A stretch of 64,000 bases of DNA from an uncultured Hyphomicrobiales bacterium (GTDB lineage: Bacteria; Pseudomonadota; Alphaproteobacteria; Rhizobiales; Xanthobacteraceae), in the NCBI GenBank assembly GCA_903839845.1, contig CAIMEA010000079.1, positions 4,189-68,188 on the forward strand. Reading direction: 5' to 3'. The notes below the pieces were generated by a model. That model was not told the origin of the DNA, searched no databases, and saw nothing but the letters and a program-made list of their open reading frames with translations. Below are positions 7,298 through 59,372 of this stretch, one piece after another. Position 1 is the stretch's first letter, and every line of letters begins with the position of its first letter. Made by a program: the position numbers and the translations under genes.

Positions 7298-7373
<76 letters not shown>

Positions 7374-40591: not shown

Positions 40592-41733
40592 GGCTTGGCT
40601 CCCGTCTGGGTCCGCGGCTGGGCCGGGCGATTGAGTTCACCGAGCGGAAGATAAGGCACCACGCCGCCGCCGCCTTCGCGGCCGCTATCCATGATGATCT
40701 TGTCGGCGCCACCGAGCACGCGCTCCATGGTCTCGAGATACATGCGCTCGCGGGTGACTTCAGGCGCCTTCTTGTACTGGTCGTAGATCTTGAGAAAGCG
40801 CGAGGTCTGACCGGTGGCTTCCGCGACCGTCTGCGACTTGTAGGCTTCGGCGCCTTGCGTGATCTGCGCCACGCGGCCGCGCGCTTCCGGCACGACCTTG
40901 TTGGCGTAAGTCTGCGACTCGTTGACCGCGCGCTCGAGATCGGCGCGCGCGGCTTGCACGTCGCGGAACGCATCGATCACCTGCGTTGGCGGATCGACCT
41001 TCTGCAACTGCACCTGCTGCACGAGGATGCCGGCGCTGTAATGATCGAGCGTCTTCTGCATCAGCTCCTGCACGGCGTTTTCAATCGTCTGGCGCGCGCC
41101 GGTCAGGATCGGCTGAATGTCGGAACGGCCGACCACTTCACGCATCGCGCTTTCGGCCACCGCTTTCACGGTGCCTTCGGGATTCTGGATGTTGAAGAGA
41201 TACTGGCCGACGCCGGTCGGCTTGATCTTCCACAGCACGGAGAAGTCGACGTCGACGATGTTTTCGTCGCCGGTGAGCATCAGGCTCTCTTCCGGCACAT
41301 CGCGCACGGTTGCGCCACGGCGGGAGTCCTCGACCACGCGCATGCCGATATCGATCTTGTTGACGCGCAACGCCTTCGGCGTCAGCACCGTCTCGATCGG
41401 ATAAGGCAGATGGTAATTCAGGCCCGGCTGCACTTCGCGCACATCCTTGCCGAAGCGCAGGACGACGCCGAGTTCGTCCGGCTCGACCTTGAAGAAGCCG
41501 GAGAAACCCCACAGCGCCAAGGCGGCGAGCGCGACCAGCGCGAAGCCCTTGCTGCCGAGATTGCCGCCCGGCAGCACGCCGCGCAGCTTGTCCTGGCCGC
41601 GGCGGAGGATTTCCTCCAGGTCCGGCGGTTTCGGACCGGACGACTGCGGTCCCGAGCCCCAGGGACCCTTGCCCCCGCCGCCCCACGGTCCGCCGCCGCC
41701 ACCGCTACCGCCGCCTTGATTGCTCCATGGCAT
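40588..41733 (-). CDS. hflK: Protease modulator HflK
   Basis: MPWSNQGGG..., MLTGDENIVDV, AFRDVQAARAD, RERMYLETME. Confidence 0.95.
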   Translation of the reverse strand: MPWSNQGGGSGGGGGPWGGGGKGPWGSGPQSSGPKPPDLEEILRRGQDKLRGVLPGGNLGSKGFALVALAALALWGFSGFFKVEPDELGVVLRFGKDVREVQPGLNYHLPYPIETVLTPKALRVNKIDIGMRVVEDSRRGATVRDVPEESLMLTGDENIVDVDFSVLWKIKPTGVGQYLFNIQNPEGTVKAVAESAMREVVGRSDIQPILTGARQTIENAVQELMQKTLDHYSAGILVQQVQLQKVDPPTQVIDAFRDVQAARADLERAVNESQTYANKVVPEARGRVAQITQGAEAYKSQTVAEATGQTSRFLKIYDQYKKAPEVTRERMYLETMERVLGGADKIIMDSGREGGGGVVPYLPLGELNRPAQPRTQTGAKP

Positions 41734-41870
41734 CGAAAATTTCTCCCGCAGCGTGGCCAAACGCGGCCGCTGGCTCTTAGTTGGGAGGGGTTATAGGGGA
41801 CGCAAGGGGACCTTACAACGCGCTGTGATGCGGCATTAAGGCCGCTATCCCGTGCCGCGGGCGATTGTCT

Positions 41871-42004
41871 GTCGTCCCGCGCAGGCGGGGACCCATAACC
41901 CACGGCCTTTCGATAGAAGTCAGACAATAAGAAGGAAGCCAACTTGCACTTTGCCTCAAGTTTTCGTCACAGCGTATGGGTCCCCGCTTTCGCGGGGACG
42001 ACAG
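41871..42004. repeat. REP-like paired palindromes (GTCGTCCC(C)GCG..GCGGGGACCCATA family)
   Basis: Left GTCGTCCCGCGCAGGCGGGGACCCATA (41871-41896) and right TATGGGTCCCCGCTTTCGCGGGGACGAC (41975-42002) are inverted copies around an ~80-nt spacer. Confidence 0.8.
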
Positions 42005-42082
42005 TGTCATCCAGGCGCGATTCATCGCCCGTATTTTTGAGCGGCCCCGGGCAGGCCGTCGTCCAAATTCGCCTTCCTTCCT

Positions 42083-42558
42083 CGCCCTCATAAAACGAGG
42101 GCGCGCGGAACGCCGGGGTCACGACAACCCCGCAGCCCTGTGCACGATGTGAGTTAAAGTACACAGGTTAGTCACCACGCAGTTGCCGGATCTCCCGGCG
42201 CTCCGCGCGCGGTGTTTATAGGTTTGCTCCGCAAAGCCCCCGGTGGCGGTACACTTTCAGACGCCCTTCCTTACGAAAGGCGCGCCTAGCCACCGCTGTG
42301 GAGCTTCCCGTATCGCGGCTCAAGGATTTGTCTTCGGCTCCGCCGGGCCCAGGTATCGAGCCCTTTGAAAGCCAAAGGCTTTGCCTTTTGGCCACGACAC
42401 GTCCGCCCCAGTGACCACCTGCATGGCAGCCGGGACCTTGCGGCTTGGACCGCTGGTGAAGTCGTTGCGCCGCATCTCCGACGCCCTCACCAGCCACCGC
42501 TCCCCGCCCCAGCATCTGACGACGCTGATCAAACGCCCCTCGTTAGTTGGGACGGGAT
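42083..42558 (-). ncRNA. Candidate large structured non-coding RNA / transcribed intergenic element (~480 nt), family not identified
   Basis: Promoter at 42566-42594; at least eight stems, including a 17-bp helix 42101-42117/42194-42210; G-U wobbles and GNRA loops occur only on the minus strand; no credible ORF. Confidence 0.65.
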
Positions 42559-42565
42559 AACCGTG

Positions 42566-42594
42566 TATATAGTCCTAATAGGATTATATGTCAA
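42566..42594 (-). promoter_or_regulatory. Sigma70-type promoter TTGACA-N17-TATATA pointing into the candidate ncRNA
   Basis: Minus strand TTGACA tataatcctattaggac TATATA; palindrome TCCTA-N-TAGGA in the spacer; predicted +1 near 42558. Confidence 0.75.
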
Positions 42595-42641
42595 TAGAAA
42601 AAACAGGCGGAGACGACATGAAAATGGGGCGCCGCCGGCTC

Positions 42642-42729
42642 GTAGGGTGGGCTAAGCGAAGCGAGCCCACCATTTTAGCAACAACCTGACGCGGTGGGCT
42701 CGGCGCAAGCGCGCCTTAGCCCACCCTAC
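42642..42729. repeat. REP-like palindromic element (GTAG family), copy 2
   Basis: Same termini as 10359-10439 with a different internal spacer. Confidence 0.85.
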
Positions 42730-42881
42730 GAGCTTCCCTTTGCCGGGGAGGCATAAGCGCACCTCACGCCTTCGGCGCGACGACAACCGGCGACAACCTC
42801 CTGCTCAAACCGGGCCAACCATGCGATAGTTCGCACTCCACAATCGGGACACATCAGAATCCCGATCCAAGGGGCAAGGGA

Positions 42882-43652
42882 ATGGCGACGATGACACCTT
42901 TCGATTTGAGCAACCGCGTCGCTTTCGTCACCGGCGGCAATGGCGGCATCGGCCTTGGCATGGCCAAGGGGCTGGCCGCCGCCGGCGCCACGGTGGTGAT
43001 CGCCGGGCGCAACAAGGCCAAGGCGGAAGCCGCGCTGTCGGAGTTGAAGGCGACCGGCGCGGCGGAGTTCGTCGAACTGGACGTATTGCAGGAGACGTCC
43101 TGTCATCAGGCCATCGACCGGACCGCGCAAAAATTCGGCCGTCTCGACATCCTCGTCAACAATGCCGGCACCAGCGTGCGCAAGCCGCCGGAACAGCTGA
43201 CCGCCGCCGACTGGCACCTGGTTTTGAACACCAATCTGACCAGCGCCTTTTTCTGCTCGCAGGCCGCCTACCCGCACATGAAGCGCGGCGGCGGCGGCAA
43301 GATCATCAATATCGGTTCGATGATGTCGACCTTCGGCGCGTCCTATGCCTCGCCTTATGCGTCGAGCAAAGGCGCCATCGTGCAAATGGCAAAGTCGCTC
43401 GCCGTCGCCTGGGCCAAGGACAACATCCAGGTCAACAGCATCCTGCCCGGCTGGATCAACACCGACCTCACCAAAAAAGCGCGCGAACAGGTCGAAGGCC
43501 TGCACGACAAAGTGCTGGCGCGCACGCCGGCGCAGCGCTGGGGCGAGCCGGGCGATTTCGCCGGCGTCGCGGTGTTTCTCGCCGCGCCGGCCTCCGACTT
43601 CATCACCGGCGCGACCATCGCCGTCGATGGCGGCTATTCGGTTCAGGCATAG
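42882..43652 (+). CDS. SDR oxidoreductase (KduD/gluconate 5-dehydrogenase-like)
   Basis: TGGNGGIG, LVNNAG, YASSKG, NSILPGWI. Confidence 0.9.
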   Translation: MATMTPFDLSNRVAFVTGGNGGIGLGMAKGLAAAGATVVIAGRNKAKAEAALSELKATGAAEFVELDVLQETSCHQAIDRTAQKFGRLDILVNNAGTSVRKPPEQLTAADWHLVLNTNLTSAFFCSQAAYPHMKRGGGGKIINIGSMMSTFGASYASPYASSKGAIVQMAKSLAVAWAKDNIQVNSILPGWINTDLTKKAREQVEGLHDKVLARTPAQRWGEPGDFAGVAVFLAAPASDFITGATIAVDGGYSVQA

Positions 43653-58833: not shown

Positions 58834-59041
58834 TGGGAAAGACGCTCCGGGCGGGGCCGGCAACGACGCGCCGGTTGAGACGGACCGGAGTTTCCTCGGC
58901 AGACGTTAATAAAATAGGCGTGAGATCAACGACTTGCCGGCCGATCCCGCTGCCGGGCGCATGGCCTATTGAGGACCATTAACCGGCAAAACCCGCGGCC
59001 CGGCCCTTAACTCGGTCACGATTACCCCCTATATTCATTCC

Positions 59042-59372
59042 TGCCGGGGCAACCCGGCTATGGCGATAAACGGACGTCGTAATAAACCTTTCGGACCCGG
59101 GGGCAGTACCCGGCGCCTCCACCAAAGCCCGCGATTGGGCGCGCCCTAAAACGGGTTTTGGCGGGGGCGAACTAGGATCGACGAGGGCGTAAAGGGCGAA
59201 CTTTTGCTCGGCATGGTTCCGCCGTTATCGGGCCAAATCGTAGTTGCAAACGACAACTATGCTCCGGTTGCTCAGGCCGCGTAAGCGGTTTGAAAAACCA
59301 AGACTAGAAGTCCTGGCGGGTTAAGCTCCGTCAGGCGGGGTTCGGAGGCACCTGGCAACAGAAGCCTCCACT
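59042..59372 (+). ncRNA. ssrA: tmRNA, circularly permuted two-piece form
   Basis: Acceptor piece ends CGCCTCCACCA (59124); spacer 59125-59162; coding piece starts GGGGGCG (59163), giving the G3-U70 alanine pair; tag ORF follows. Outer ends approximate. Confidence 0.95.
59246..59284 (+). other. tmRNA proteolysis tag (A)NDNYAPVAQAA
   Basis: GCA AAC GAC AAC TAT GCT CCG GTT GCT CAG GCC GCG TAA. Confidence 0.93.

Follow-up and report, generated by a model that had tools for sequence, protein, structure and literature searches.

The 64,000-nucleotide stretch of DNA analyzed here (the window) derives from an uncultured Hyphomicrobiales bacterium of the family Xanthobacteraceae. On its minus strand, 250 nt upstream of hflK and in the same orientation, is a gene at 42594-42012 that comprises a promoter and a predicted RNA of ~547 nt (42558-42012). 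The promoter, which an earlier note on this DNA had proposed, was recovered by direct reading. The -35 region (42589..42606) consists of TTGACA at 42594-42589 with a T-rich stretch before it, and is followed by a 17-nt spacer and the -10 hexamer TATATA (42566..42571). The start had been placed at 42558, and this is where the conserved 5' end, AUCCCGUCCC, begins, 7 nt after the -10. The promoter is of the sigma-70 type and close to consensus, has A/T-rich bases upstream, and lies at a fixed distance from the motif AUCCCG. The -35, the -10, and their spacing to AUCCCG recur in other copies of the element, which occurs in two types, A and B. The position of TTGAC is constant in A-type copies, in B-type copies, and in another genus, and TTGACA and AUCCCG are 30 nt apart at this locus and also in genus g67. 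In other copies the stretch upstream of the -35 is A-rich and then has a run of C, as in UP elements. The site escaped a consensus promoter scanner only because the last base of the -10 is A, and the scanner rule requires T.

The element is longer than was first thought. The earlier note gave an RNA of ~480 nt ending at 42083. In BLAST and nhmmer searches of the whole genome, similarity between copies begins ~10-15 nt upstream of the -35 and continues to ~42012, a further ~70 nt, which gives the predicted size of ~547 nt. We found no intrinsic terminator where the unit ends, so the RNA 3' end probably results from trimming to a pseudoknot (described below) or from the repetitive extragenic palindrome (REP) hairpins that follow many copies.

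The predicted RNA is highly structured, as had been claimed. The minus strand of 42083-42560 folds with a minimum free energy of -271.7 kcal/mol (z = -10.9), a value that none of 100 shuffled sequences equaled; the plus strand of the same span reaches -200 kcal/mol (z = -2.8). The full 547-nt RNA folds at -294.5 kcal/mol (z = -9.2). All of the stems that had been listed are present, each in its proposed place, when the minus strand is read directly. The 5' domain (42405..42558, with a predicted +1 at the A at 42558) is matched by covariance model R1 at 42405-42559 with a score of 155.6 bits. It begins with a hairpin CGUCCC/GGGGCG (42554-42549 with 42539-42534) and includes a hairpin CAGCGUC/GAUGCUG, the conserved motif GGGGCGGGGAGCGGUGGC, a nested hairpin with the conserved loop GGAGAU, the invariant stretch GGUCCAAGCCGC, and a hairpin at 42432-42414.

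Between the 5' domain and the core is a central variable domain (42297..42404; columns 183-316 of alignment A1), whose length differs: long in the window copy, it is short in a second Pseudolabrys clade. A GGGG/CCCC pairing (A1 columns 179-182 with 317-320) closes it, and this closing helix, helix 11, covaries. The conserved core (42211..42296) has the form CAGCGGUGG...CCACCGGGGG...GCGGAGCAAACCUAUAAACACC and corresponds to invariant columns in A1. It is connected to the 5' domain via the long-range helices GCGGUG/CACCGC and CCGC-NNN-GUCCC/GGGGG-NNN-GCGG. The core helices are 4, 8, 9, and 12, and helix 9 has four covarying pairs. Two direct repeats noticed earlier, at 42288/42492 and 42403/42504, are both exact and are part of conserved motifs (GAGCGGUGGC / CAGCGGUGG and CUGGGGC).

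The 3' domain (42083..42210) has a GC-rich closing helix (42210-42197 with 42114-42101) around two hairpins, and then a hairpin CGCCCUC-loop-GAGGGCG with a U-rich loop (42103-42083). Its helices are 13-15, and helix 15 has five covarying pairs. The 17-bp helix previously described at 42210-42194/42117-42101 is present, but only its outer 9-14 bp are kept in relatives. The GNRA loops that had been pointed out do not occur consistently in other copies. Beyond the span considered earlier is a 3' module (42012..42082). It starts with a GGAAG-rich linker, which is followed by a hairpin CGGCC-UGCCCGG-GGCCG (42058-42042), an A-rich linker CUCAAAAAUA, and the sequence CGGGC (42031-42027). The latter pairs with GCCCG (42052-42048) in the hairpin loop, which makes an H-type pseudoknot. 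The conserved unit closes with the tail GAUGAAUCGCGCCUG, ending ...GCCUG. Both pseudoknot stems covary: stem 1 changes between GGCC/GGCC and GGCG/CGCC, and in stem 2 nine distinct sequences, drawn from two genera, have C-G in place of G-C. A terminal helix joining the 5' and 3' ends (AUC..GUCC with GGGCGAU) is possible on paper. We rejected it because in a genome of another genus (G196) the 3' tail varies with no matching change at the 5' end, and because the pseudoknot already takes up the strand concerned.

Evidence for the fold comes from comparison of homologs. In alignment A1 (MAFFT; 22 A-type sequences from 16 Pseudolabrys genomes), RNAalifold predicted 93 pairs, 29 of which have compensatory changes. 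For the structure including the pseudoknot, 33 of the 99 pairs show double changes and 95.9% of cells are paired across the 22 sequences; covariation was among the checks that the earlier note had proposed. None of 500 shuffles of this 99-pair, 22-sequence model reached the real value on any of five measures, and pairing fell to 38-47% when partners were shifted by one to three columns. For the 5' domain alone, 60 sequences from several genera gave 95.6% paired cells and 23 of 42 covarying pairs in an alignment fitted to the model (fitting to the model, as for alignment A3, favors pairing counts).

The modeled pairs of the 22 homologs include 255 G-U or U-G cells versus 23 A-C or C-A cells. 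This excess identifies the minus strand as the one under selection, as RNA, in agreement with the strand assignment first made from the G-U pairs of the single copy. The element also appears to be noncoding, as had been suggested: no open reading frame (ORF) is conserved, ORF position and length vary among copies, and 4 of the 22 copies have no ORF of at least 40 aa. The 99-aa ORF at 42216-42515 was considered and rejected, given that its AUG is ACG in about half of the homologs and a 1-nt indel occurs after the AUG. With covariation above controls, strand-specific G-U pairing, and no conserved ORF, the element fits generic standards for a functional structured noncoding RNA, with a discrete transcript that is predicted.

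No Rfam 15 family (4227 models) matched the element at its gathering threshold in a scan of the whole window, in line with the earlier view that it belongs to no named family. The only gathering-level matches in the window lie elsewhere: a two-piece alphaproteobacterial tmRNA gene (59003-59372, plus strand, 310.7 bits) and a tRNA gene (7301-7373, minus strand). A scan of 41700-42950 at E<=10 returned only chance matches, on the flanking REPs. B-type copies and copies from other genera likewise had no Rfam match, permissive E-values included, and neither they nor the window copy matched group II intron or retron RNAs; HEARO and other omega-RNA models also failed to match element copies. Identity with a known RNA family was thus rejected. 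Searches of the literature by full text and by sequence string found no description of the element, and a paper on small RNAs and REPs of B. japonicum covers small RNAs only (PMC5082802). As judged from these sequence comparisons, the RNA family appears to be uncatalogued.

The element is present in many copies. The window's genome (G000), from a Pseudolabrys soil bacterium, is a fragmented metagenome-assembled genome (MAG) of 4.04 Mb in 240 contigs, estimated to be 99.8% complete; because it is fragmented, copy counts are approximate, and transposases and other repeated genes may be missing. Nine copies in it are nearly full length, at 72-87% identity, and many others are halves that lie at contig ends. 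Type A (~545 nt) has ~20 copies, and the 5'-domain covariance model finds 20. Type B (~470 nt) has ~11 copies and a middle and core of its own; its promoter style and 3' pseudoknot module are those of type A, and its 5' start is similar (AUCGUCC...GAGGGCGCUGUCAUGAGGCGUC). A profile search located the 3' module, which is common to all A and B copies, at 31 sites. Sites that at first seemed to have only the 3' module proved to be type B copies, among them C4:50017-50480, C80:3908-4370, C226:14992-15420, C204:27350-27881, C167:16930-17480, C55:29270-29728, and C182:1012-1440 (contig:positions). One B-type copy folds at z = -4.6. Together the ~30 paralogs take up ~0.4% of the genome.

The copies are mosaic: parts such as the 3' hairpin and the central domain are shared among them in differing combinations. 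Positional orthologs are 77-91% identical and are not always mutual best matches. This, and the sharing of blocks in varied combinations, indicates recombination between paralogs. In some subfamilies the tail is followed by a further conserved sequence, a trailer (..GCTGTTTGA[C/A]AAT[T/C]GAATC..), which we observed at contig ends of genome G154 (loci L387-L393) and on contigs C226, C182, C85, and C55 of G000. G154 has ~10 near-identical copies, every one terminating a contig, and this set suggests either recent expansion or strong homogenization.

The earlier note likened the ends of the element to multicopy intergenic elements of Bradyrhizobium-like genomes, and the element is indeed multicopy in relatives of that genus. 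The 5'-domain model has matches in 27 of the 62 genera sampled from the family. Multiple copies are frequent, with 17 in one complete 6-Mb genome. Within Pseudolabrys the exact 3'-module pattern occurs in 60 of 71 genomes at 0-28 copies each, and the reversed pattern, used as a control, gave 0. Matching contigs come from Pseudolabrys and from unclassified Rhizobiales and Hyphomicrobiales MAGs, and the core motif is present on >120 soil and sediment contigs in a metagenome collection of contigs >=1 kb. A DNA search of 16 other families of the order gave no match. Carriage as plasmid cargo was rejected, as there was no match among PLSDB plasmids.

Comparison of related genomes revealed both stable and variable loci. 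Comparison with genome G006 was possible at seven loci, and all seven have the element in both G000 and G006. The B-type copy upstream of hppA and the copy on contig C169 occur in the more distant G009 as well. At the hppA site, G014 has REP repeats in place of the element. The spacer between hflK and an SDR gene is 1.1 kb in genomes with the element (G000 and G010) and 200-250 bp in those without it (G014, G009, and G055). The C210 copy is present in G006 and absent from G010, G014, and G009. A copy upstream of mutL occurs in two genera (G000 and G196); neither the 29 other genera sampled nor another Pseudolabrys genome, G104, yielded one at that site. Given these absences, an ancient syntenic position at mutL is not upheld, and the mutL copy may be an independent gain. 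In G196 the 3' halves of copies are almost identical. Copies are thus gained, lost, and mosaically recombined among related species.

Neighboring genes are unrelated housekeeping genes, including hflK, mutL, rimO, hppA, genes for acyl-CoA enzymes, and a porin gene. A linked nuclease, reverse transcriptase (RT), or transposase at other copies had been suggested as something to look for. All-against-all comparison of the neighbor proteins detected nothing recurrent and no linked protein at any copy, so a linked protein partner was rejected. The downstream gene has the same orientation as the element in 19 of 29 copies in G000 (opposite in 10) and in 7 of 16 copies in G196 (opposite in 9), which indicates that a role as leader or mobile promoter is not general. 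The hflK leader includes the sequence CCCCTCCCAACTAAGAG (41774-41790, minus strand), which resembles the element 5' end ATCCCGTCCCAACTAACGAG. Every Pseudolabrys genome examined keeps this leader in front of hflK, whether the element is present or absent. A motif shared between the hflK leader (TCCCAACTAA) and the element 5' end was considered; the likeness is probably due to chance, as the shared 10-mer occurs only three times in the genome.

REP-like repeats surround the element. Just upstream of the promoter is a 90-nt palindrome (42641-42730; GTAGGGTGGGC...GCCCACCCTAC) with ~10 or more copies in the genome, for which the only Rfam matches are spurious hits to microRNA models. Directly after the element tail is a pair of REP hairpins of another type (41869-42004; GTCGTCCCCGCGAAAGCGGGGACCCATA); there are ~47 such hairpins in the genome, and they follow 3 of 30 elements, the window copy included, versus 0.05 expected. 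A third REP type (CTTCTTTTTACCCTCCCCTGGAGGGGGAGGG) starts 13-45 nt past the tail in 9 of 30 copies versus 0.06 expected. These nine copies are on contigs C80, C31, C210, C205, C28, C19, C88, C206, and C6 of G000, and the same REP follows the element at loci L221, L229, L230, and L233 of G196. REP hairpins thus trail the element tail far above chance, with the same association in G196, and this suggests that REPs are connected, by function or by insertion, with the 3' end of the RNA gene.

The best reading of the element, and one that we consider moderately probable, is an uncatalogued family of separately transcribed large structured RNAs that act in trans; the transcript itself is predicted. 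Each copy would be an autonomous transcription unit with a strong promoter. In the modeled RNA the conserved core would join the 5' and 3' parts via long-range helices and leave the variable hairpins at the periphery, where they could tolerate or encode differences between paralogs. The functional core may consist of the invariant single-stranded and junction motifs GGUCCAAGCCGC, the loop GGAGAU, and GAGCAAACCUAUAAACACC. The 3' end may be protected, and perhaps defined, by the pseudoknot and A-rich linker, often backed by a REP hairpin. Stable and structured, the RNA could act as a scaffold for a protein in a ribonucleoprotein (RNP), as an RNA-only assembly, or possibly as a catalyst. Counting against this reading, ~30 dispersed, assembly-breaking paralogs would be more usual for mobile DNA than for RNA genes, and the set of occupied loci changes by gain and loss (at hflK, only G000 and G010 have the element). 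Neither the comparison of neighbor proteins nor a search of the genome for targets of the variable domains found a partner protein or target.

The main rival is a decayed mobile element. Specifically, a nonautonomous MITE- or SINE-like element, of the kind the earlier note had considered, could have relied on its structured RNA or DNA to spread and been moved by a protein encoded elsewhere or since lost, leaving copies that are mostly old insertions. We consider this unlikely, although much about the copies fits it: ~30 of them are dispersed in intergenic regions with fairly sharp ends, many lie at contig ends where assemblies are broken, and Pseudolabrys genomes differ in copy number, from 0 to 28. 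Lineage-specific near-identical sets (in G154 and G196), presence/absence differences at the hflK and C210 loci, mutL-upstream copies in two genera that would fit independent insertion, and the tight association with REPs also are in its favor. Many dispersed copies that differ in presence between relatives are features of MITEs, but junction alignments of 16 copies exhibit no terminal inverted repeats (TIRs), target-site duplications (TSDs), or common target or flank motif; empty sites are crowded with other repeats, so exact insertion junctions are not readable. No genes were detected in G000 for RT (PF00078, RVT_1), TnpB (PF07282, with IscB-specific domains outside the search), or Y1 transposase (PF01797, Y1_Tnp), although control genomes were positive for each, and on this basis mobilization as a retroelement, an omega-RNA element, or an IS200/REP element was rejected. 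The element likewise differs from REPs/BIMEs moved by RAYT in its 580-bp unit with a multidomain fold and in the lack of PF01797 matches; REPs do lie on its flanks, as separate units. Paralogs at 72-87% identity keep 96% of modeled pairs by means of compensatory changes, which would not be expected of decaying insertions, and the promoter is conserved with the RNA, whereas a retro-copy would lack a promoter upstream of its own start. The seven tested loci shared with G006 and the absence of plasmid matches also argue against mobility.

Alternatively, the element could act in cis, as a portable strong promoter with a long structured leader or as an antisense generator, with read-through controlling the neighboring gene (here hflK). 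The lack of an intrinsic terminator would allow this, the co-oriented downstream gene in 19 of the 29 G000 copies is often only 170-270 nt away, and co-oriented copies precede hflK, mutL, and hppA. Yet 9 of 16 copies in the other genus converge on the downstream gene, so that the pooled counts (26 versus 19) amount to no real bias, and the downstream genes have no common functional theme. In addition, hflK has its own promoter and leader, conserved in species with and without the element, and REP hairpins lie between element and gene in many copies; we therefore regard cis action as improbable. A guide RNA for an RNA-guided protein, resembling an omega-RNA, bridge RNA, or retron noncoding RNA, with the central domain or 3' flank as the guide, is very improbable. 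A conserved scaffold with a hypervariable insert in many paralogs is what such a system might look like, and the flank could be transcribed past a terminator-free 3' end. However, no TnpB or RT domain was detected in the genome, Rfam contains no HEARO or omega-RNA match, no protein is linked to any copy, and the upstream flanks have no conserved motif that could serve as a TAM. Variable domains as guides were rejected, as these regions match nothing else in the genome.

Returning to trans-acting RNAs, we also entertain a more speculative and rather doubtful idea, in which the element would be a class of large ornate RNAs organized as a multigene repertoire. Constant 5' and 3' handles and a conserved core would be combined with interchangeable peripheral or central modules, shuffled by recombination among the ~30 paralogs. 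In Xanthobacteraceae the products would serve as catalysts, or would assemble themselves into hetero-oligomeric RNA particles. Action in trans would point to an undescribed RNP or RNA machine, and mobility to a mode of transposition with no recognizable enzyme. Function is directly testable, because the family, a common one in soil and in association with plants, includes culturable, genetically tractable genera.

The element has features in common with several known systems. Like REPs/BIMEs, RIMEs, Correia elements, and BOX elements, it is dispersed, intergenic, multicopy, assembly breaking, and modular, and it adjoins REP hairpins. Those repeats are 30-300 bp long, have palindromes or TIRs, and are moved by RAYT or IS transposases, whereas the element is 580 bp and, in contrast to REPs/BIMEs and MITEs, has a multidomain RNA fold, G-U asymmetry, compensatory changes, and a conserved promoter. 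The multicopy trans-acting small RNAs of Rhizobiales, such as AbcR/alpha-r15 and NfeR/alpha-r14, are 100-200 nt long with two to three hairpins, C/U-rich seed loops, and Rho-independent terminators, and occur in <10 copies. They resemble the element in being paralogous, separately transcribed intergenic genes of alphaproteobacterial chromosomes with sigma-70-type promoters and conservation at the family or order level. The element is three to five times larger than these RNAs and multidomain, with long-range helices, a 3' pseudoknot, and no terminator.

Large structured bacterial RNAs are rare, and those known are either fundamental (the ribosome, RNase P, tmRNA, and group I and II introns) or puzzles (OLE, ROOL, and GOLLD). 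OLE (RF01071), ROOL, GOLLD, and the raiA motif RNA resemble the element in size (450-600 nt), in their many covarying helices and pseudoknots, and in their long invariant single-stranded stretches. They too have their own promoter, are noncoding and taxon restricted, and have a puzzling biochemical function. None matches the element in sequence or structure in Rfam 15, even at E<=10. OLE is often found beside oap genes, and ROOL and GOLLD often occur in prophages near tRNAs, whereas the element is found in Alphaproteobacteria, next to unrelated housekeeping genes and without a fixed neighbor. These RNAs are present in one or a few copies, in contrast to the ~30 dispersed paralogs of the element, with their two types and shuffled modules. 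Dozens of paralogs, two deeply diverged types, and shared, recombining end modules make for an organization unlike that of other orphan RNA classes.
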